Shown: positions 5,487 through 60,482 of the stretch, piece after piece
Layout of the letters: each line of letters opens with the position of its first letter
How positions within the stretch are numbered: the first letter of the stretch is position 1
Source of the DNA: a virus
Taxonomy: Duplodnaviria; Heunggongvirae; Uroviricota; Caudoviricetes
Direction: 5' to 3' (one strand)
IMG/VR virus record: IMGVR_UViG_3300028388_003891
Coordinates: 5,513 to 69,512 of that record
DNA length: 64,000 nucleotides
Notes under the pieces: generated by a model
Told to the model about the DNA's origin: nothing
Databases searched by the model: none
The model's input: the letters and a program-made list of their open reading frames with translations, nothing else
Position numbers and translations under genes: made by a program

Positions 5487-5528
5487 CACCATAACTACAA
5501 AGCTAGTCGGCAACGGAGATAATAAAAA

Positions 5529-16164: not shown

Positions 16165-17607
16165 TCATGCAACCGCATAACGATCGCTCATGATTGTGTC
16201 AAGCATTACAGAATGCGGTGTCAACGTGCCTCCTAGCAACCCTTTAACGACTGCAGGACTTGCACCGCTGACGAGTGCTGCTCCGCTTTCATGCATCGTC
16301 ACAGGAATGTTATTGCCACGATCACACACATTCCACCATACAAGCTGAGGAACCTCGTATCCAGCTTTGCTGAACATCTCACGAGCCATTTCCTGTGCGG
16401 TAAAGTTAGTGCCTCGCCGTTGCACAAAGGGATGATCAAACTGCATATCGCTGATCACCAACAGATGCGTTGGCATGTCCTCTTGCGACAGATTAGCACG
16501 CTTTGCTGCAGTCAGTACTGCCTTAAATGTTTTCTGCAAATCGGTGTTCGCACCCCAGCCTGCAGATTCAACACTCTGCCAGCGCTGTTTCAGCGTTTTG
16601 CCTTTGATTACTTGCATTTGCGGACGCTCACTAAACGTAATGAACTGATCCTTAAAGATCGAAGTATTACGCTCGGCAAGGTACATTGCCAGAGACGTCG
16701 ACACGTCCATCGCTGTAACCGTTCCCGACCCCAGCGTTTGATTCATCGAGCACGACACGTCACAAACAACCATAAATCGAGCGTTGCTGTCGCCAATGTA
16801 ATCAGGCAGCGCTTTCCACTGTGCATCAGCCACTTGTGCATCACCGAGACGCAGTGATTTAACGATGTCGTATGGAAACACAGCACTTGCATTGACCTTG
16901 ACATCAGCATCCCCACGAGACAACTTTGCGCGGTACGAAGCATAGCCATCAGGATCGTGGCGGTAGAACGCTGCCTGGTAACGGGCTGCCGCAACCGACG
17001 GCACATGGCTGTAGGTGATCTGCGACCATTCATTGGCACACATACGCTGCTCGACAGTGTCGGACAGCGGCACAATCAATCTGCGCCACGCTTTTTCGTT
17101 GCGAACACCTGCTGCCTTAATAAGCGGCCGGGCCCCTTTCTTCACTTTACGTGGGGCCCACTTAGCCGCAAGACCATTGCCTTGCTCGATTGCTGTAACC
17201 CACAGCTCTGCTGCAAATGACTCGAGTGGTGTACCGAACGCCGCTTGAAGGTCGTCCCAGCGGCCAACTTCCGGAAGACGCTGTATTAGCGTCTGCGCTA
17301 CCTCTCGTAGCTCGGGGTTTGGTGCACCAGCAAGACCATTGATAATAAGGCGAACCGTTTCACGCTCGCCAGCACCACCACGAATGTCGCGGCCCCACAG
17401 CACAATACGCATTGCGTATTCTGGATTTTCCTGATACGCAGCCATAAACTGCCCAATCAGGTCTTTTCCCCGAGAAGAGCCTATCTGAAAAAACAGATCA
17501 ACGCAATCATTTAGCGAGCTGTGGAACGCTTCCATCCCATTCTCGGTGATCGTTGTGTTGGTCATTTGTGCCGCAAGTTTGCTTACTTGTGTCATAATAA
17601 TCTCCAA
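16165..17607 (-). CDS. vWA-domain protein, possibly Ro60/TROVE-like
   Basis: 480 aa; MIDAS motif VVCDVSCSMNQ close to Ro60 LLAIDVSASMNQ, C-terminal LLVISDMQFDHP strand, helical N-terminal ~300 aa; only long minus-strand gene in this region. Confidence 0.55.
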   Translation of the reverse strand: MEIIMTQVSKLAAQMTNTTITENGMEAFHSSLNDCVDLFFQIGSSRGKDLIGQFMAAYQENPEYAMRIVLWGRDIRGGAGERETVRLIINGLAGAPNPELREVAQTLIQRLPEVGRWDDLQAAFGTPLESFAAELWVTAIEQGNGLAAKWAPRKVKKGARPLIKAAGVRNEKAWRRLIVPLSDTVEQRMCANEWSQITYSHVPSVAAARYQAAFYRHDPDGYASYRAKLSRGDADVKVNASAVFPYDIVKSLRLGDAQVADAQWKALPDYIGDSNARFMVVCDVSCSMNQTLGSGTVTAMDVSTSLAMYLAERNTSIFKDQFITFSERPQMQVIKGKTLKQRWQSVESAGWGANTDLQKTFKAVLTAAKRANLSQEDMPTHLLVISDMQFDHPFVQRRGTNFTAQEMAREMFSKAGYEVPQLVWWNVCDRGNNIPVTMHESGAALVSGASPAVVKGLLGGTLTPHSVMLDTIMSDRYAVA

Positions 17608-17972
17608 AACAGACTGTACACTATCGCTACCATTTTAAATTTGCTGCAGACAGTCTTTGCTAGTAACGGAATGATTTTTCCTAGCGTTTGTTTGAGGACA
17701 AACCTTTCGATTGGTTGCTGTAATCATTCCTAAATTCTACTCAGCGAATAACGGGTCGCCTTGCTCATCAACGAGGTTGTCGTTGCGTACGATTTGAACG
17801 ACACCTCGATTTCCTCGCCGCGAAATTCCGTCAAAGGGGAGCAGTACGTACGTATACTCCCCACTGCTTATGATCGGGAAAACCCTTTGCTTGGTTTTCT
17901 TAATCCGTGTAGTTTTTAACATTCGAGTATCTTCCTTCGATCAAAAGCAATTGTCAACAGATAAATATCTGT

Positions 17973-26265: not shown

Positions 26266-26934
26266 ATGTCTAAATCAAATCCCGACCTCGGTCGGCAAGT
26301 AAACGAGCACCTCGTGCAACTTGGAATTCATACCCCCGTTACCGATATGGTGATGGAAGATCGTGAAACCAAAATTGCAAAGGTCGCAGAACTCACTAGA
26401 GAAATGTTGGAGGTACTTGGTCTCGATCTCTCAGACGACAGCTTGGAAGAAACTCCAATGCGCGTTGCGAAGATGTACGTCGATGAGACTTTTGCCGGTC
26501 TTCGTTATGATACTTTTCCTAAATGCACCACAGTAGAAAACAAGTTCTGCCACGGTGATGAATTTGTCCTCGAGAAGAACATAACGCTATACAGCGACTG
26601 CGAACATCACCTTCGTCCTATTATTGGCAAAGCGCACATTGCGTACATACCAAAGGATAAAGTGATGGGGCTGTCAAAGTTGAATCGCATCACACAATAC
26701 TTCGCCAGGCGCCCGCAAGTGCAAGAGCGTCTTAATCAGCAAATTGCTCACTCAATCGCATTCATCACTGAAAGTGAAGATGTGATGGTAGTGATCGAAG
26801 CTGAACACACCTGTGTGTCCCAACGCGGTATTAAAGACACTTCAAGCTCAACTGTCACGGCTTGTTGCCTTGGTCAGTTTGGCATTCACAACAGCGAGCT
26901 GCGTAAAGAGGTTATGGCCAATATCAATAGGTAA
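26266..26934 (+). CDS. folE: GTP cyclohydrolase I (FolE)
   Basis: ETPMRVAKMY, CEHHLRP, GLSKLNRI, FARRPQVQERL, IEAEHTC motifs; GGAG RBS before ATG 26266. Confidence 0.85.
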   Translation: MSKSNPDLGRQVNEHLVQLGIHTPVTDMVMEDRETKIAKVAELTREMLEVLGLDLSDDSLEETPMRVAKMYVDETFAGLRYDTFPKCTTVENKFCHGDEFVLEKNITLYSDCEHHLRPIIGKAHIAYIPKDKVMGLSKLNRITQYFARRPQVQERLNQQIAHSIAFITESEDVMVVIEAEHTCVSQRGIKDTSSSTVTACCLGQFGIHNSELRKEVMANINR

Positions 26935-27350
26935 TGAATCAGCCATACAAGTTTTATATCGCCAAGGCAACAAATAACAAACACCCAATACCAGAAAACA
27001 AGCAGTTCTTGAAATTTGGCATTACGCACCATATGGATGCCGCCAAACGGTTTGACCCAACACAGGATGATGGGTACGACAAGAAGTATGAGGACTGGGA
27101 CTTTCGAATTATGTTCTCTTTGGTTTGCAAAACGCGAGAGCAGGCAGAACTGATCGAGTCGTATTGGCTCGGCGAAGTGTTTCCAGCTGACGGGCCCACT
27201 AAAGTGTGGGTTGAAAGTTATCTGGGGCTTGAAGATGATCAGTACTATTCGGATATGTCTGGTATAACGGAACTGCGCCTACTCAGCCAGAAACAGGCTG
27301 GGTGGGCGATTCGTAAGGCATATGAGCTGTACAAACCAAATCAAGGTTAA
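26934..27350 (+). CDS. GIY-YIG-like nuclease-domain protein
   Basis: YKFYIAK...FLKFGITH...R...KTREQAELIESYWL pattern (GIY / YIG / Arg / Glu helix). Confidence 0.4.
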   Translation: MNQPYKFYIAKATNNKHPIPENKQFLKFGITHHMDAAKRFDPTQDDGYDKKYEDWDFRIMFSLVCKTREQAELIESYWLGEVFPADGPTKVWVESYLGLEDDQYYSDMSGITELRLLSQKQAGWAIRKAYELYKPNQG

Positions 27351-28947: not shown

Positions 28948-29468
28948 TGAGTCTGCGTAATATAGCCCTTTCCACCAATCCAGCAGAGTTGTCTCATACT
29001 GAAGAGGATGATGTTCAGCCAAATGCTGTCGACATACGTCTCGATAAAGTGTGGCAAATTTCCAACGAGACGTTTACCCTCAGTGATAGTCACAAGGGGC
29101 ATCGTGGGTCCGAAGAGCTGTCGTTTACCCGTCATTTCCCCGACCATGAAGGCGAATGGATCGATCTATATCCAGGCAGCTATGAGTTTACCGCTAGAGG
29201 TACTGTGCTAGTTCCGCCTGGGTTCGCTGGGTGGGTAGTTACTCGAAGCACACTGAACCGTAATGGTGTCTTCATAACATCCGGCCTGTACGATAGCGGC
29301 TATCATGGAGTAATGGCCGGCGTAATACATGTATCTTGCGGTCCCTTTCTGGTTCAGCGAGGAACACGCATTGGTCAGTTTATACTTGTCGACGCTGAAA
29401 CATCTCATCAGTACGATGGCGATTACGGTTTGGGTAAAAAGCACGATGATAAGTACACGACTGCGTAG
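28947..29468 (+). CDS. dCTP deaminase/dUTPase-fold protein
   Basis: AVDIRLDKVW...VLVPPGFAGWVVTRSTLNRNGVFITSGLYDSGYHG...IGQFIL matches Dcd/dUTPase fold pattern. Confidence 0.6.
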   Translation: MSLRNIALSTNPAELSHTEEDDVQPNAVDIRLDKVWQISNETFTLSDSHKGHRGSEELSFTRHFPDHEGEWIDLYPGSYEFTARGTVLVPPGFAGWVVTRSTLNRNGVFITSGLYDSGYHGVMAGVIHVSCGPFLVQRGTRIGQFILVDAETSHQYDGDYGLGKKHDDKYTTA

Positions 29469-29576
29469 CACAATCTGGTAGTGCGCTGAACTCTAAATTC
29501 ATGAGATAACGGTTCAAATCCGTTCGCAGTCACCATATATACACCGCAATGACTAATGACTTTAAGGGAAACAAAC

Positions 29577-30799: not shown

Positions 30800-31104
30800 A
30801 TACGAGCAGTTGAACAACTACCCACCTCGATTTTAGACATTGGAACCAGAGTCCCAATGACGGACAAACCAGTCGCGGCACAGGCGATCAATATTGTTGT
30901 AGAACTGCGTGAAGCTCGAGATCATGAACTGAAACGATTGACTCGTCGCCAGTTGCAAAGTATCATTGATAAAGAAACTGCCCGACAAACACAGCGGAGG
31001 ACTACATCTGATGGCTATTGGCGAAGATCGTGATCCAATCTATGGAATAGTGTACGCATCTTGTACGCTAGTGATTGGCGGCCCGATTCTTGCATTTGCT
31101 GGTG

Positions 31105-31452
31105 GGGCGTTCCATTAACGAAATTCGATGAAGCACAACGAACGGTGCTAAGGACGGGGGTTCGATTCCCCCCACCTCCACCAAAAAGCATACTCTTCCC
31201 GCGAAAGCGGTGCGATGGAAGTCGTCATAATCAACCAAGGGAGTATGCTTTTTGATGGGGGTGCACTGGCTTCGACTTGGACTTAATAGCTTGTGTGGAG
31301 AATAGGTGCGGAAGCTACCTTAAACGCAACAAAGTAAAAAAGTGACGCAGCTAATGATGCTGTGTATGATGTGGCTCTAGCAGCCTGATCATACTGGGGA
31401 TTGACTATCCTTATTATCCAATAAGTCCGGGCAGGTTAAACCTGCCCGTTTT
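31105..31452 (+). ncRNA. ssrA: two-piece (circularly permuted) tmRNA gene (ssrA): acceptor piece ending CCA at 31183, excised stem-loop 31184-31256, coding piece from 31257 with tag ORF 31347-31388, terminator 31429-31452
   Basis: GGGGG-TTCGATT-CCCCC T-arm + CACCTCC-A-CCA; perfect 12-bp inverted repeat AAAAGCATACTC/GAGTATGCTTTT; GGGGGTG...GGCTTCGAC 5' piece with G3 opposite U70; tag GCAGCTAATGATGCTGTGTATGATGTGGCTCTAGCAGCCTGA = AANDAVYDVALAA; 5' boundary approximate. Confidence 0.75.
31429..31452 (+). terminator. rho-independent terminator ending tmRNA coding piece
   Basis: GGGCAGG-TTAAA-CCTGCCC + GTTTT. Confidence 0.75.
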
Positions 31453-31553
31453 AGTTTTCTAATTGTAAACGGCCCCTTCTGTTGAATTACGTTTGATAGA
31501 TACGTGACTGTATGGTTGCTGAAAAACAGCAATCCTTTGAAATGGAGATCATT

Positions 31554-50992: not shown

Positions 50993-51044
50993 CTGCCCTG
51001 ATGAGTCTTACAGGAGACGAAACGCGCTGATAGCGCGTCGGCAG
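50993..51044 (+). ncRNA. type I hammerhead ribozyme (HHR-2) whose cleavage site is the 5' end of the downstream tRNA
   Basis: CUGCC-CUGAUGA-GUCU/UACAGG/AGAC-GAAA-CGCGC/UGAUA/GCGCG-UC^-GGCAG; cleavage after C51039. Confidence 0.75.
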
Positions 51045-51121
51045 AGTACACCCGTAACTGGTAGCGGCCCGCACTGTAACTGCGCATAACGTTGGGGGTT
51101 CGAATCCCTCCTCTGCCACCA
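51040..51121 (+). tRNA. tRNA with GUA anticodon (Tyr-type), 8-nt variable region, irregular D region
   Basis: acceptor GGCAGAG/CTCTGCC, anticodon stem CGCA/TGCG loop CTGTAAC, T-arm GGGGG-TTCGAAT-CCCTC, A73, CCA. Confidence 0.5.
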
Positions 51122-53101: not shown

Positions 53102-53470
53102 TTGCATCAAGGATGCTGCAAAGGCGTTGATCGCGAATGCTACCTAATGGCAGCAGACAATCCAGACTACGACATAACGATTTACTCGTACCCACCAATT
53201 AATGATCACTATGCGATCAAGTGCCTCGGTCATGTCAATTACAAGCCACAGCCGTTCCTTGTACGCGATCGTGCTCTGGTAGATGCGGCGGATATTCTGC
53301 TATCGATGCCACTTACTGATTACGAGACATTTCGCAGTGGTACATGGTACACTACACGCTATGCTCTGCAGCAGGACAAGCCTGTCGTACTGATTCAACC
53401 TAACGGCACTAGTGTGCCTGCTGATGAAATTGAGAGATACTTACTACCTGGAAAATGGGGTGAAAGGTAA
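53102..53470 (+). CDS. hypothetical protein (122 aa)
   Basis: ORF. Confidence 0.4.
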   Translation: MHQGCCKGVDRECYLMAADNPDYDITIYSYPPINDHYAIKCLGHVNYKPQPFLVRDRALVDAADILLSMPLTDYETFRSGTWYTTRYALQQDKPVVLIQPNGTSVPADEIERYLLPGKWGER

Positions 53471-54435
53471 TGGAATTCATCAAATACAGCTCGATTGAGA
53501 ATCACTACCGTGAGAAGGTTGTCGACTGGTATCGTGAAAATGGATTAGAAAACGTCGGATGGATCTTGACGGAGAAGATCCATGGCGCTAACTTTTCTTT
53601 CTGGTGCAACAGCAGCGAAGTCAAGGTCGCATCTCGTAACCAATGGGTCGACAGCACATTCTATAGCTGTCAGGACATCATCGACGCGTACACGCCCGTT
53701 GTGCTAGAGCTCGCTACTTTCTTCCCCAACAGCACTGTAGCTGTGTATGGGGAGCTGTACGGACCCGGTATTCAGAAGGGGGTCAATTACGGCGACAAAA
53801 AAGATTTCGTTGCCTTCGACATTCGAGTTGACGGATACTTCCTAGATCGTAATAAAGTACATGTGTACATCGCTGGTGCAAACCAGCTGACATTACAAAA
53901 GCACGGTCAGAGGTCCACCTTGATGGACGTTGTCCCTATTGTTGGCTCGACAGTGTCACTAACACAAGTGCTTGAGTTTGATAACGAGTTTGTATCTGTG
54001 CTTGGCCGTCTCAATGGTGTCGACGACGATGCCAACCTTGCTGAGGGATTCATTGCAACGCCAGTCGGCAAAGCGTACCAACGCATTGGCAGCGACCGTG
54101 TGATCCTCAAATCGAAAGGTGAAAAGTGGACAGAGAAAAGCAAGAAGGTAAAGACGCCTCGTGCTCCTGTTACTGAGCACCCACTGACATCAACGGTTGA
54201 GCAGTATGTCAACACCAACCGTGTCGATGCTGTCACAAGTAAGATGGGCCCGTTGACTCCAAAGGACTTTGGTCGGATCATTAGGGCTGTTTGTGATGAT
54301 GTCATTGATGACATGGTGAAGGACGGTGATGTTCGTAGCTGCTGGCGCGATGACGAAGAGACGAAAGACCTTGGCAAGGTTGTTAACAAAGTGGTAGTGC
54401 CTTTCCTCAAGAAAGAGCTGCTACCGACGTTGTAA
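53470..54435 (+). CDS. RNA ligase 2 (T4 Rnl2/gp24.1-like)
   Basis: KYSSIENHY and adenylation motif KIHGANFSF match T4 Rnl2 N-terminus; nucleotidyltransferase plus C-terminal domain size. Confidence 0.75.
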   Translation: MEFIKYSSIENHYREKVVDWYRENGLENVGWILTEKIHGANFSFWCNSSEVKVASRNQWVDSTFYSCQDIIDAYTPVVLELATFFPNSTVAVYGELYGPGIQKGVNYGDKKDFVAFDIRVDGYFLDRNKVHVYIAGANQLTLQKHGQRSTLMDVVPIVGSTVSLTQVLEFDNEFVSVLGRLNGVDDDANLAEGFIATPVGKAYQRIGSDRVILKSKGEKWTEKSKKVKTPRAPVTEHPLTSTVEQYVNTNRVDAVTSKMGPLTPKDFGRIIRAVCDDVIDDMVKDGDVRSCWRDDEETKDLGKVVNKVVVPFLKKELLPTL

Positions 54436-55351: not shown

Positions 55352-55428
55352 GGGTCGTTAGCTTAATTGAGTAAAGCAGCAGGCTTTTAACCTGCCAGAT
55401 CTGAGTTCGAGTCTCAGGCGGCCTACCA
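55352..55428 (+). tRNA. tRNA-Lys (UUU)
   Basis: acceptor GGGTCGT/GCGGCCT (G-U rich), stem GCAGG/CCTGC loop CTTTTAA, T-arm CTGAG-TTCGAGT-CTCAG, A73 CCA. Confidence 0.7.
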
Positions 55429-55541
55429 AATCAATATGGCGCTAACTCGTGCCCCGACCACCAGATCGGACTACAATGCTGGTAGGCACCTAGGCCTATA
55501 CTCGCCCCAGTCGAGTGAACGTGTGACAGTTACGACGACAC

Positions 55542-55653
55542 GACCATAATGGAACTGGGACAAATTCTTGGCATGTAGCATTGAAGGTAATGCGCCGCAC
55601 TGTTAATGCGGAGGAATCCGGTTCGATCCCGGACGTGCCAGCCAATTATGGTC
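55542..55653 (+). repeat. 9-bp inverted repeat GACCATAAT / ATTATGGTC bracketing tRNA-Asn (putative precursor-processing stem)
   Basis: 55542-55550 and 55645-55653 are perfect reverse complements; the 3' arm starts right after CCA. Confidence 0.5.
55569..55644 (+). tRNA. tRNA-Asn (GUU)
   Basis: acceptor TGGCATG/CGTGCCA, stem CCGCA/TGCGG loop CTGTTAA, T-arm TCCGG-TTCGATC-CCGGA, G73 CCA. Confidence 0.75.
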
Positions 55654-55910
55654 CGTTGCATTGGGATGCATCCCTTTGCTGATAAACGAAGGGGAGTAAG
55701 TCGGGCACGCGACCGACCGGAAGCCGGATATAAAGCTGTCATCTGACATGGTGGCAGTCGGACCGCCATACAATGGGGCGAAGTGACGTAGACGCGCGTT
55801 AAGAACAGCCGATCTGAGCCCCACCATAAATAGGTCAACACACTACAGGTTGACAACATGATAGCTTTCAAGGACCATATTCAAGAATCAAGAACAGCTA
55901 AAGTTTTAAC

Positions 55911-55984
55911 GCCCGGTTAGCTCAATGGGAGAGCTACTGCCTTACAAGCAGAGGACGGTGGTTCGATTCCATCACTGGGTACCA
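55911..55984 (+). tRNA. tRNA-Val (UAC)
   Basis: acceptor GCCCGGT/ACTGGGT, D-arm GCTCAATGGGAGAGC, loop CTTACAA, T-arm GGTGG-TTCGATT-CCATC, A73 CCA. Confidence 0.6.
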
Positions 55985-56012
55985 AGAATAGTGGAGGGCT
56001 AATGCCCATCTG

Positions 56013-56082
56013 CGAGCTCCACAACGACTGGCAAATGGCGCTGGGGTGTCCCGGAACGGAGGTTCGATTCCTCCCAGTTCGT
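56013..56082 (+). other. tRNA-like element with T-arm and acceptor-like helix but a tetraloop hairpin in place of an anticodon arm (pseudo-tRNA or tRNA-like RNA)
   Basis: CGAGCTC ... CTGGG-GTGT-CCCGG ... GGAGG-TTCGATT-CCTCC-CAGTTCG; too short (70 nt) for a tRNA. Confidence 0.3.
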
Positions 56083-56245
56083 ACTACAACACCGGTTAGT
56101 GATACGAGTAACGATTAAGTTACAGTTGTGGAGCGGTACTATTAGGAATGGCTACAGCATCTAATTACTACGCAGCCAAAGAAAGCCATTCCGTAACAAT
56201 TAAGAGTGTTTGCAGCAACTAATCTTCCATGCTAAGGACGAGGCC

Positions 56246-56271
56246 GCAGGTTCGAATCCTGCTCCCCGCCA
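56246..56271 (+). other. orphan tRNA 3' half (T-arm + acceptor 3' strand) fused directly upstream of tRNA-Ala 5' strand
   Basis: GCAGG-TTCGAAT-CCTGC-TCCCCGCC then ATCGAC then GGTGGGGG; CCCCGCC/GGTGGGG can pair as a hairpin; no complementary 5' acceptor strand upstream. Confidence 0.3.
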
Positions 56272-56277
56272 TCGACG

Positions 56278-56400
56278 GTGGGGGTAGCTCAGCGGTAGAG
56301 CGCGTAGAAATACACTCTGTTTATTTTTGGGGGTGCCGTATGGGACGGACTTAGCCCTTGCAAGGCTGATGGTCGGGATCGTTACCCGATACCTCCACCA
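56278..56400 (+). tRNA. tRNA-Ala (UGC)-like gene with ~48-nt insertion or duplicated 5' half
   Basis: canonical 5' acceptor+D-arm GTGGGGG-TA-GCTCAGCGGTAGAGC (56278-56301), then 48 nt including a second possible 5' strand GGGGGTG (56329-56335, gives G3-U70), then anticodon arm TTAGCC-CTTGCAA-GGCTGA, T-arm TCGGG-ATCGTTA-CCCGA, 3' TACCTCCACCA. Confidence 0.4.
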
Positions 56401-56406
56401 AACATT

Positions 56407-56484
56407 CACCGTGTAGCTCAGTCTGGTCAGAGCGTTCGCTTTGGAAGCGTAGGGCCACTGGTTCGAATCCAGTCATGGTGACCA
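56407..56484 (+). tRNA. tRNA-Pro (UGG), second copy
   Basis: acceptor CACCGTG/CATGGTG (C1-G72), D-arm GCTCAGTCTGGTCAGAGC, loop TTTGGAA, T-arm ACTGG-TTCGAAT-CCAGT, A73 CCA. Confidence 0.6.
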
Positions 56485-56664
56485 AATTGGTTCGTGGACT
56501 ACCGTAAGACGCCTACGTTTAGGTGCCGCGACCCCACGAACAAGTCGTGGGACGACAAGCGCGAATGTGTTATATACTTCACACGGACGGTGGCGTCTGT
56601 TGTTGTGAAAGTCGTTAACTAGCGTTGAGCTGATCACTCTAGTCCCGCGGCGGCGCTATTAAAT

Positions 56665-56740
56665 GGGTCGTTAGCTTAACTGGCAAAGCTCCGGTCTCCA
56701 AAACCGGCAGATCGCGGTTCGAAGCCGTGGCGGCCCGCCA
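56665..56740 (+). tRNA. tRNA-Trp (CCA)
   Basis: acceptor GGGTCGT/GCGGCCC, stem CCGGT/ACCGG loop CTCCAAA, T-arm CGCGG-TTCGAAG-CCGTG, G73 CCA. Confidence 0.75.
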
Positions 56741-56817
56741 AACAGCTCATAAGGTGAGCAGTTGCGACTGGTACATATTCGCCGCCACGCCATATTTTCT
56801 CTTGCCGGAAGATAAAC

Positions 56818-56893
56818 GCTCCTAAAGCATTGCTGGCCGATGCACGGGTCTTGTAAGCCTGAGAACTCAGTTCGATTCTGAGTAGGAGCACCA
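56818..56893 (+). tRNA. tRNA-Thr (UGU)
   Basis: acceptor GCTCCTA/TAGGAGC, A8A9, D-arm GCAT..ATGC, stem CGGGT/GCCTG loop CTTGTAA, T-arm CTCAG-TTCGATT-CTGAG, A73 CCA. Confidence 0.7.
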
Positions 56894-56897
56894 ACAT

Positions 56898-56973
56898 GCC
56901 CTCAAAGCATTGCCGATTGATGCGCGAGTTTCGTAAACTTGATAACTGCGTTTGATTCGCAGTGAGGGCTCCA
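56898..56973 (+). tRNA. tRNA-Thr (CGU)
   Basis: acceptor GCCCTCA/TGAGGGC, paralogous to previous, stem CGAGT/ACTTG loop TTCGTAA, T-arm CTGCG-TTTGATT-CGCAG, U73 CCA. Confidence 0.7.
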
Positions 56974-57022
56974 ATTGAGCAACTGCAGAATGTCTGCGGT
57001 GATATACAGGTAGGACGCATAA

Positions 57023-57821: not shown

Positions 57822-57915
57822 GGAAGGTAATGCAGTGCCGATGGTGGCGCGACTGGCCTTGAAAACCAGGTCCCGGCTAAAACCGGGTGGGGTTCGACTC
57901 CTCTGCCTTCCGCCA
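57822..57915 (+). tRNA. tRNA-Ser (UGA), class II
   Basis: acceptor GGAAGGT/GCCTTCC, loop CTTGAAA, long variable arm hairpin CCCGG-CTAAAA-CCGGG, T-loop TTCGACT, G73 CCA. Confidence 0.7.
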
Positions 57916-60390: not shown

Positions 60391-60482
60391 GGAAGGTTGC
60401 CAGAGAGGTCGATTGGGGCTCCCTGCTAAGGAGTTGACCCTCTTATGAGGGTCCGAGAGTTCGAATCTCTCACCTTCCGCCA
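60391..60482 (+). tRNA. tRNA-Ser (GCU), class II
   Basis: acceptor GGAAGGT/ACCTTCC, stem CTCC/GGAG loop CTGCTAA, variable arm ACCCTC-TTATG-AGGGT, T-arm GAGAG-TTCGAAT-CTCTC, G73 CCA. Confidence 0.75.

Follow-up and report, generated by a model that had tools for sequence, protein, structure and literature searches.

What kind of gene lies behind an apparently broken alanine transfer RNA (tRNA) in the tRNA array of a phage? The stretch of DNA that was analyzed, here called the window, comprises 64,000 nucleotides (nt) of the IMG/VR virus record IMGVR_UViG_3300028388_003891 (Caudoviricetes; positions 5,513 to 69,512 of the record). The array occupies 50.2-60.5 kb of the plus strand and contains a 422-nt gap between tRNA-Val (55911-55984) and tRNA-Pro (56407-56484). 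No tRNA is called in the gap (55985-56406) by default ARAGORN or by the Rfam tRNA model. An initial annotation had interpreted positions 56246-56400 as one anomalous tRNA-Ala locus, with an orphan 3' half, two alternative 5' halves and a 48-nt insertion. Instead, the "broken tRNA-Ala" is two separate genes, both within the gap: a Y RNA-like RNA and, directly 3' of it, a complete but odd tRNA-Ala. The first (56199-56328) encodes, with a probability of roughly 0.84, a Y RNA-like non-coding RNA of the YrlA class that mimics tRNA in permuted order and would be bound by a phage protein of the DUF2828 family.

All of the strings quoted in the initial annotation were found in place by direct reading of the sequence. 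The order of the parts can be followed along the chain (Table 1). From the closing stem P1 the RNA enters within the 5' strand of an anticodon stem. An anticodon-like loop, a variable loop and the T arm follow, then the two acceptor strands, 3' before 5' and joined by a 6-nt loop, and finally U8A9, the D arm and a 3-bp helix, P2, that leads back to P1. The internal loop adjacent to P1 has CAGCAA on its 5' side and an A-rich run on its 3' side, and GUU follows the 3' strand of P1. The strands TCCCCGCC and GGTGGGGG form eight pairs. In the window copy the 3' strand of this acceptor-like hairpin is followed by C-AUC and has no in-register CCA. The nucleotides of the tRNA elbow are all present (G18 G19, UUCGAAU, A14, and G15/C48). 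The T arm is not an orphan as had been thought, since AGGCC and an anticodon-like hairpin with the loop AUGCUAA stand upstream of it in register. A metagenome scan with a V-plus-T-arm pattern returned mostly real tRNA-Thr(GGU) genes; thus the "V" hairpin of the window and AGGCC represent an anticodon arm and a variable loop in exact tRNA register. The 48 nt (56302-56349) between the D arm and the Ala anticodon arm (loop CTTGCAA) were described correctly, but they are not an insertion. They consist of the 3' part of the upstream RNA (the 3' strand of P2, the A-rich stretch, the 3' strand of P1 and a U-rich tail) and the 5' part of the tRNA-Ala. The stem P1, the CAGCAA motif and a Ro60-like gene elsewhere in the window had been overlooked.

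Table 1. Features of the window (positions are those of the 64,000-nt stretch).
Feature	Position	Strand	Basis or remark
Y RNA-like gene (YrlA-class tRNA mimic, CAGCAA type), including GUUUAUUUUU tail	56199-56328	+	R1 model 115.2 bits, E=1.8e-20
P1 5' strand AGAGTGT	56203-56209	+	pairs with 56312-56318
CAGCAA motif	56213-56218	+	CAGCA invariant in alignment A1
Anticodon-arm-like hairpin CUUCC-AUGCUAA-GGACG	56224-56240	+	tRNA register, positions 27-43
Variable loop AGGCC	56241-56245	+	read from sequence; tRNA register
T arm GCAGG-UUCGAAU-CCUGC	56246-56262	+	sequence reading; aligned to YrlA and R1 models
T arm parts GCAGG; TTCGAAT; CCTGC	56246-56250; 56251-56257; 56258-56262	+	sequence reading
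Acceptor-like hairpin UCCCCGC(C)-AUCGAC-(G)GUGGGGG	56263-56284	+	7 pairs plus 1, loop-closed
Acceptor-like hairpin parts TCCCCGCC; ATCGAC; GGTGGGGG	56263-56270; 56271-56276; 56277-56284	+	sequence reading
U8A9 (TA)	56285-56286	+	sequence; R1 and YrlA models
D arm GCTC; AGCGGTA; GAGC	56287-56290; 56291-56297; 56298-56301	+	sequence; R1 and YrlA models
G26, then CGU (P2 3' strand)	ends 56305	+	P2 strand is 56303-56305
P1 3' strand ACACTCT, then conserved GUU	56312-56318	+	R1, covariation, RNAalifold
tRNA-Ala(UGC), 72 nt including CCA	56329-56400	+	ARAGORN 90% threshold (-ps90) and mitochondrial mode
tRNA-less P1-ACAGCAU module (GGAATGGCT/AGCCATTCC, tail GUAA)	56144-56196	+	sequence; stem in minimum-energy fold
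tRNA-less P1-ACAGCAA module (GGAATGATT/AATCATTCC, tail GUUA)	17660-17734	-	R1 27.4 bits, E=0.009
tRNA-less module AGACTGT-CTG-CAGCAA...ACAGTCT-GUUU	17603-17658	-	R1 16.1 bits
Ro60-like protein gene (Pfam DUF2828 + DUF7788)	16165-17595	-	likely start ATG at 17595; open reading frame (ORF) 16165-17607
Rnl2-type RNA ligase gene	53470-54435	+	inside tRNA array
Permuted (two-piece) transfer-messenger RNA (tmRNA) gene	31091-31479	+	Rfam tmRNA_permuted 95 bits; ARAGORN tag DAANDAVYDVALAA*
tRNA with anticodon CUA (amber-suppressor type; ARAGORN: tRNA-Pyl)	29459-29535	+	far from main array
Long-arm tRNA-Ser(UGA)	57822-57915	+	default ARAGORN misses; -ps90 calls; Rfam tRNA-Sec-like 41 bits
Further tRNA	51040-51118	+	Rfam only, 40.4 bits; default ARAGORN misses
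tRNA-Ser(GCU), normal	60391-60482		

The downstream gene, tRNA-Ala(UGC), is the sole tRNA-Ala of the array. Its acceptor stem has 7 bp and contains G3·U70; A73, the anticodon loop CUUGCAA and, as in the neighboring tRNAs, an encoded CCA are also present. Its D arm is short, with a 3-bp stem, and its T arm (TCGGG/ATCGTTA/CCCGA) has the loop AUCGUUA. It falls slightly short of the default detection thresholds, and neither default ARAGORN nor the Rfam tRNA model at its gathering score reports it. When the ARAGORN threshold was relaxed over the whole window, only this gene and tRNA-Ser(UGA) were added, and both are in gaps of the array and on its strand. A scan for the anticodon arm with the ATCGTTA T loop gave 0 matches, and an nhmmer search of all fetched loci gave nothing significant; the case for its function is therefore made from structure and identity elements. 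Its fold as a single sequence has z = -0.06. The tRNA-Ala is a separate, atypical gene that is probably functional.

That there is just one tRNA-Ala gene, interrupted by an intron or supplied with two alternative 5' halves, was suggested by the well-formed 5' acceptor strand and D arm that stand 48 nt upstream of the Ala anticodon arm. The pairing does not agree with this. The strand GGGGGTG (56329-56335) forms 7/7 pairs with TACCTCC (in TACCTCC-A-CCA, ending at 56400), with G3·U70 as the initial annotation had noted and with G7·U66, and is its true partner, whereas the upstream GTGGGGG forms 5/7. ARAGORN in its intron mode (-i) makes no call, and 56329-56400 by itself folds into a complete tRNA-Ala. 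The 8-bp hairpin that the first 5' strand forms with TCCCCGCC explains that strand completely, and the hairpin is conserved among a family of related RNAs. Members of this family precede many kinds of tRNA or none, with no preference for tRNA-Ala (locus L113 does have one). The probability of a single gene is accordingly considered very small indeed.

The family was found by its architecture. A search of GenBank phage DNA with 55900-56800, for near and distant matches, returned tRNA matches only. An exact 22-mer scan of viral contigs had an ordinary tRNA as its sole match, and the Rnl2-like protein, used as an anchor, had no relatives in IMG/VR. Since no close relative of the locus was found in GenBank phages or IMG/VR, the search was made by architecture. 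Two pattern scans of IMG/VR gave 252 junctions from viral contigs in which a T loop leads into a D arm. The complementarity of the strands flanking these junctions is bimodal (88 with 7/7, 26 with 6/7, and the rest with 0-5). Among the distinct junctions, 94 have at least 6/7, and 88 of the 94 are outside of the tRNAs called by ARAGORN. These non-tRNA junctions share with the window a P1 that is variable in sequence and always complementary, (A)CAGCAA at 1-3 nt past its 5' strand and, flanking its 3' strand, an A-rich run on the 5' side and GUU on the 3' side. A covariance model, R1, was built from nine family members and has 136 model positions, all of which are covered by the match to the window element (Table 1). 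The next matches in the tRNA array reach at most 16 bits. The R1 family comprises at least 129 copies in 86 viral contigs plus the window, often with two to four in tandem, and the closest relatives of the window RNA are in L123, L131 and L160. In a genome collection (L325-L368), 63 R1 matches were found on contigs of metagenome-assembled genomes that are assigned to many phyla (Akkermansia, Lachnospiraceae, Bacteroides, Patescibacteria and an archaeal bin); contigs with CAGCAA-type matches may be phage or prophage contigs.

Substitutions in the family preserve the proposed helices. In alignment A2 (129 homologs), 95.1% of cells are paired, compared with 60.3% after shuffling. Covariation scores 0.847 versus 0.200 in shuffles (0/500 reach it) and at most 0.14 when the partners are slid by 1-3 columns. 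Pairs were changed on both sides in P1 (7/7), the acceptor-like stem (8/8), P2 (3/3) and the T stem (4/5). P1 is paired in 96.4% of cells, and the two inner pairs of P2 covary strongly. Because A2 is fitted to the model, RNAalifold was also run on a plain (unfitted) MAFFT alignment. P1, the T arm, the acceptor-like stem and the D arm were recovered, with 17/23 pairs compensated. These results bear on the possibility that the locus is a recombination scar or a functionless, decayed tandem duplication of a tRNA, as the initial annotation had considered. A tandem pair of copies of one tRNA would be expected to leave complementary acceptor strands, and the energy of the single-sequence fold is unremarkable. 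A remnant of this type does not account for at least 129 homologs in 86 viral contigs with the same architecture and compensatory changes in every helix, for the conserved CAGCAA and GUU motifs that flank it, or for the same-strand link to DUF2828 genes in 20/20 loci that is described below. Decay is thus extremely improbable. A false positive from two adjacent tRNAs was also considered and was rejected.

The 3' half of the tRNA-like part precedes the 5' half, and the observation that this is the topology of a circularly permuted tRNA holds. When the window sequence was de-permuted, default ARAGORN called a tRNA-Ser(gct) of 75 nt with a short variable arm, and 95 of 122 de-permuted relatives were also called as tRNAs. 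At least 2 bp close a 7-nt loop at the anticodon-like position in 84/124 copies. These loops have U33 (75/84), A37 (73/84) and A38 (76/84). The triplets at the anticodon position in A2 are dominated by UGU, UUU, GUU and GCU, with U36 in 52/84, and the loops resemble those of tRNAs that read ANN codons. The mimicry in Y RNAs therefore extends as far as the anticodon loop. The anticodon stem is mostly split, with a full stem on one chain in only 16/124 copies. For its outer two or three pairs, the partner is usually supplied in trans by the strand 3' of the D arm (P2), so that the chain break falls inside the 5' strand of the anticodon stem. N-CCA is found exactly after the 3' acceptor strand in 23/129 copies (18%), compared with about 2 by chance.

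Could the element be a genuine tRNA gene in circularly permuted form? In that case its transcript would be cleaved at the P1/P2 base and circularized, for example by the Rnl2-like ligase encoded in the same array, and the acceptor loop would be opened by RNase P and 3' processing to give a working tRNA. The valid cloverleaf of the de-permuted sequence, the 7-bp acceptor-like stem, the excess of N-CCA among relatives and the retention of U33, A37 and A38 are consistent with this. In addition, the YrlA of M. smegmatis is cut by RNase P, with its 7-bp acceptor-like stem as the cleavage determinant, and receives CCA (PMC4201824). However, the window copy does not have an in-register CCA, and the anticodon stem is mostly split across the family. 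The window body presents the Ser anticodon GCU on a short variable arm, and a normal tRNA-Ser(GCU) is already in the array. Seryl-tRNA synthetases normally require a long variable arm, and to our knowledge no bacterial or phage pathway of tRNA circularization is known. The conserved CAGCAA, the link to Ro60-like genes and the existence of modules without any tRNA-like part point to a ribonucleoprotein scaffold instead. A working permuted tRNA is very unlikely. The earlier suggestion of a regulatory decoy comes close to the likely role of the element, which is that of a tRNA mimic.

The Y RNA-like reading is also indicated by the Rfam model of YrlA (RF02553). This model matches 56238-56306 with 28.4 bits (E=7e-4 in an 801-nt stretch and 0.05 in the whole window). 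The alignment covers model positions 23-86 and includes the T arm, the closed stem TCCCCG/TGGGG, the D arm and the outer helix ACG/CGT. It is the sole YrlA-type match in the 64-kb window, and none was found at about 30 tRNA-tRNA junctions. The window RNA shares with YrlA the order of T arm, closed acceptor-like stem and D arm, the residues of the T and D loops, and a closing stem formed by its ends. It does not have a Ro60 (TROVE) gene within about 4 kb on the same strand.

Two classes of elements can be distinguished. Those that have GGUUACUUC in place of CAGCAA adjoin Pfam TROVE genes and match the full YrlA model with 45-48 bits; in L046, L069, L033 and L024 they are directly upstream of such genes. 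The CAGCAA-type elements, that of the window included, match the tRNA-like core of YrlA only (28-34 bits) and go with DUF2828. No YrlA match at the Rfam gathering threshold was found in 14 DUF2828-linked loci. From these class-specific alignments and gene neighbors it appears that the tRNA-like head is shared and that the module on the protein side varies with the kind of Ro-like protein. The anticodon-like hairpin of the window is most similar to that of the GGUUACUUC class (L046, L088), so the window element looks like a hybrid of the two. We infer that 56199-56328 belongs with the Y RNAs of the YrlA class but has another protein-binding module and is partnered by a DUF2828 protein.

The window encodes such a protein on its minus strand. 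Pfam identifies DUF2828 and DUF7788 and a weak vWA_Ro60 match, without a TROVE match. A search of its sequence against the PDB returned nothing. A profile search gave a weak match to the TROVE protein of phage phiLo (9L5Y, E=7e-4) and otherwise weak matches to von Willebrand A domains. An AlphaFold2 model based on 46 homologs (mean predicted local distance difference test score, pLDDT, of 91.3) has a HEAT-repeat ring and a C-terminal von Willebrand A domain, as does Ro60. In a Foldseek search of the PDB, ranks 1-9 were all Ro60. The best was 1YVR (E=7.6e-8, template modeling score, TM, of 0.64), and 8/9 of these matches were aligned over their full length with TM 0.61-0.64. The DUF2828 protein is thus predicted to have a Ro60 fold. 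Homologs are present in 711 GenBank phage records, including those of Felix O1-like, KVP40-like, Listeria and Staphylococcus phages and mycobacteriophages, and some mycobacteriophage records label them as "Ro-like RNA binding protein."

The RNA family and the DUF2828 genes are found together. When the window protein was used in tblastn, a homolog was found in 20 of 86 short loci (fetched stretches). The RNA is on the strand of the DUF2828 gene in all 20 and is 77-1315 nt from it in 19. A full copy that is not annotated was found in the Felix O1-like E. coli phage wV8 (L220:8358-8495; NC_012749.1 about 26804-26941; 57.7 bits). It is part of a tRNA array, with the DUF2828 gene gp47 about 1 kb upstream, and is overlapped by a minus-strand hypothetical coding sequence, gp048, which may be a false gene call. 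In Vibrio phage ValKK3, no R1 match was found within 6 kb of the DUF2828 gene.

A second link is provided by modules that consist of P1 and the CAGCAA loop without the tRNA-like part. Two of them (17660-17734 and 17603-17658) are directly upstream of the DUF2828 gene of the window and on its strand, and the nearer one ends at the GGAG ribosome-binding site of the gene. A third, to which R1 gave no score of its own, directly precedes the Y RNA-like element. The modules correspond in pairs across the two places. GGAATGATT/AATCATTCC near the gene corresponds to GGAATGGCT/AGCCATTCC in the array, with compensatory changes in the stem. AGACTGT/ACAGTCT corresponds to AGAGTGT/ACACTCT, which is P1 of the element itself, with one C-G to G-C swap. 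The closest DUF2828 relatives (L218 and L219; 56% and 51% identity) each have three P1-CAGCAA modules upstream of the gene, and in one of the two a complete tRNA-like copy lies at a distance of 5 kb. Aeromonas phage 4_4572 has a tRNA-less P1-CAGCAA module directly upstream of its DUF2828 gene. A generic scan for a stem, CAGCA and a stem gave 31 matches versus about 11 in shuffles, and is too loose when the GU(U/A) tail and an intergenic position are not demanded. CAGCAA is presumed to be the recognition site for the Ro60-like protein.

Alternatively, the element could be a structured array RNA whose function does not involve the Ro60-like protein, for example a processing or punctuation element acted on by RNase P/RNase E or a decoy for tRNA-targeting nucleases, and the CAGCAA modules near DUF2828 would then be translational operators only. 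Its distance from the DUF2828 gene, its position inside the array, the roughly 20% of relatives that abut tRNAs and the module that ends at a ribosome-binding site are in agreement with this. It does not explain why the same P1-CAGCAA-GUU module, with compensatory changes, is found in both places, or why CAGCAA tracks DUF2828 and the YrlA-like module tracks TROVE. This alternative is regarded as unlikely.

Several observations weigh against a YrlA-class RNA bound by the DUF2828 protein. In the window, 39 kb separate the RNA from the DUF2828 gene and the two are encoded on opposite strands, so that the argument from adjacency is drawn from the relatives and the shared CAGCAA module and not from this locus. 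The YrlA score of 28.4 bits is well under the Rfam gathering threshold of 69 bits, and the YrlA motif GNCGAAN0-1G is absent from 56140-56330, where CAGCAA takes the corresponding place. The nucleotides 56238-56240 can pair alternatively with 56303-56305 (P2), and in the window sequence P2 and a closed anticodon-like stem are mutually exclusive. The single-sequence fold of the element is not unusually stable (z = -1.48). Finally, A2 is fitted to its model, and part of the family was gathered by means of patterns in which the T loop, the D arm and CAGCAA are fixed.

A mechanism can be proposed for the Y RNA-like element. The RNA would probably derive from the transcript of the tRNA array, and cleavage by RNase P at the 5' end of the tRNA-Ala (56328/56329) would set its 3' end. 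The P1-CAGCAA module would probably be bound by the predicted Ro60-fold DUF2828 protein of the phage. Recognition by this protein is the simplest explanation for modules that occur both upstream of its gene and in the element, and whose type tracks the type of protein. The tRNA-like head could bring a host or phage factor that recognizes tRNA to the ring protein, or it could act as a decoy for such a factor. Complexes of Ro60, Y RNA and PNPase (polynucleotide phosphorylase) in bacteria, the action of TruB and DusA on YrlA (PMC4201824) and the phiLo complex (PMC12135203) are precedents. The likely context would be the surveillance of tRNA and other RNA, or counter-defense, during infection; the latter is suggested by the Ro60-like protein of phage Bas63, which counters the ppl defense (PMC11482910).

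A broader proposal is more tentative and is offered as a possibility of the less likely kind. DUF2828 proteins and CAGCAA-type RNAs may constitute a distinct, phage-wide family of Ro/Y ribonucleoproteins that is absent from Rfam and from genome annotation. The heads might be complete permuted tRNAs with anticodon-loop mimics biased toward U36-A37-A38 (Thr, Lys, Asn, Ser and Arg-like) and might serve as decoys or sensors for host defenses that target tRNA. The N-CCA members (18%) might be opened by RNase P into two-piece, CCA-ended molecules. The RNA family seems to be undescribed, as it escapes the Rfam YrlA model and carries no annotation in wV8. For the phage itself, a likely mis-annotation is corrected: the apparently "broken" tRNA belongs to an RNA gene of its own, and a tRNA-Ala is encoded after all. 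The widespread Ro60-like DUF2828 proteins of phages can now be paired with an RNA family.

A T4-like phage without close relatives in culture is the source of the window. Genes for a sheath protein, a gp20-type portal, a gp23-type capsid protein and UvsW are present, and the best match of the capsid protein is that of Phage C48C1 (64% identical). The permuted type of its tmRNA may point to a host among the alpha- or beta-proteobacteria or the cyanobacteria. RNA ligase genes, such as the one in the array, also adjoin some related elements, those of L103 and Aeromonas phage 4_4572. A scan of 55400-57000 for promoters and terminators gave counts at chance level. Upstream of the tRNA-less module in the array, a 10-bp stem (GCTCCACAAC/GTTGTGGAGC) encloses a multi-branched fold (56016-56134, plus strand). 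It holds a second T arm, GGAGG-TTCGATT-CCTCC (56058-56074), in a small, non-permuted tRNA-like unit (ACUG...CAGU), and it does not have the CAGCAA motif. Folding of the region 55985-56200 has z = -3.66, and an nhmmer search with 55985-56145 found no homolog in any of the fetched loci. The 180-nt gap between tRNA-Pro and tRNA-Trp (56485-56664, plus strand) has no tRNA, Rfam match or ORF call, and as an nhmmer query it gave nothing significant in the fetched loci.

Among known systems, YrlA is the closest. YrlA RNAs are bacterial Y RNAs with an interior that mimics tRNA and a loop-closed acceptor stem. They are encoded beside Ro60 genes in bacteria and 22 phages (PMC4201824) and were already known in mycobacteriophages, CcrColossus and Bacillus phage G (Chen et al., 2014; PMC4201824). 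TruB and DusA act on them (PMC4201824). The window RNA resembles them in its end-paired stem, in an interior that runs from the V arm through the T arm and the closed acceptor-like stem to the D arm, in the 15-48 pair and in the predicted Ro60-fold protein encoded by the same genome. It differs in having CAGCAA in place of GNCGAAN0-1G and a DUF2828/DUF7788 paralog in place of a Pfam TROVE partner, in its location inside a tRNA array and in its "V arm," which is a full anticodon-loop mimic in tRNA register. With the M. smegmatis YrlA it shares the 7-bp acceptor-like stem, and part of the phage family (18%) has the in-register N-CCA; unlike these, the window copy has C-AUC.

The Ro60 homolog of the Thermus phage phiLo binds the phage Y-like RNAs Yrl1 and Yrl2 and PNPase (PMC12135203; PDB 9KOP, 9L5Y). 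These RNAs were chosen by a CGAA motif, and a tRNA-like domain is not described for them (PMC12135203). As in phiLo, a phage-encoded Ro60-fold protein has small RNAs or modules directly upstream of its gene (two in the window), but the phiLo protein is a member of the TROVE family.

The permuted tRNA genes of Cyanidioschyzon merolae also have the 3' half before the 5' half, with the acceptor strands joined by a short linker as they are here. They mature via a circular intermediate with splicing machinery of the eukaryal/archaeal type. Unlike these genes, the window RNA has ends that extend into a conserved, putatively protein-binding stem, and its body and anticodon are mismatched. The permuted tRNA-like domain also recalls two-piece tmRNA, of which the window has its own. 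The element differs from tmRNA in having no tag reading frame, no G3·U70 in the acceptor-like stem and no pseudoknots. The element was also considered as a permuted tmRNA and this was rejected, with tmRNA_permuted reaching only 10.8 bits nearby.

No description of DUF2828-linked Y RNAs was found in the papers that were searched, which does not prove that there is none. Bas63 gp130 is a Ro60-like protein that is encoded upstream of tRNA genes (PhageMaP preprint, PMC11482910). The authors of that 2024 preprint guessed that some Bas63 "tRNAs" might be Y RNAs with which this anti-defense protein works, and no RNA was shown (PMC11482910). The DUF2828 protein of the window resembles gp130 and its Felix O1-like relatives in its Ro60-like fold; their gene is found by a tRNA array, with a member of the RNA family in the related phage wV8. 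The guess made for Bas63 now has a concrete sequence motif, P1-CAGCAA.

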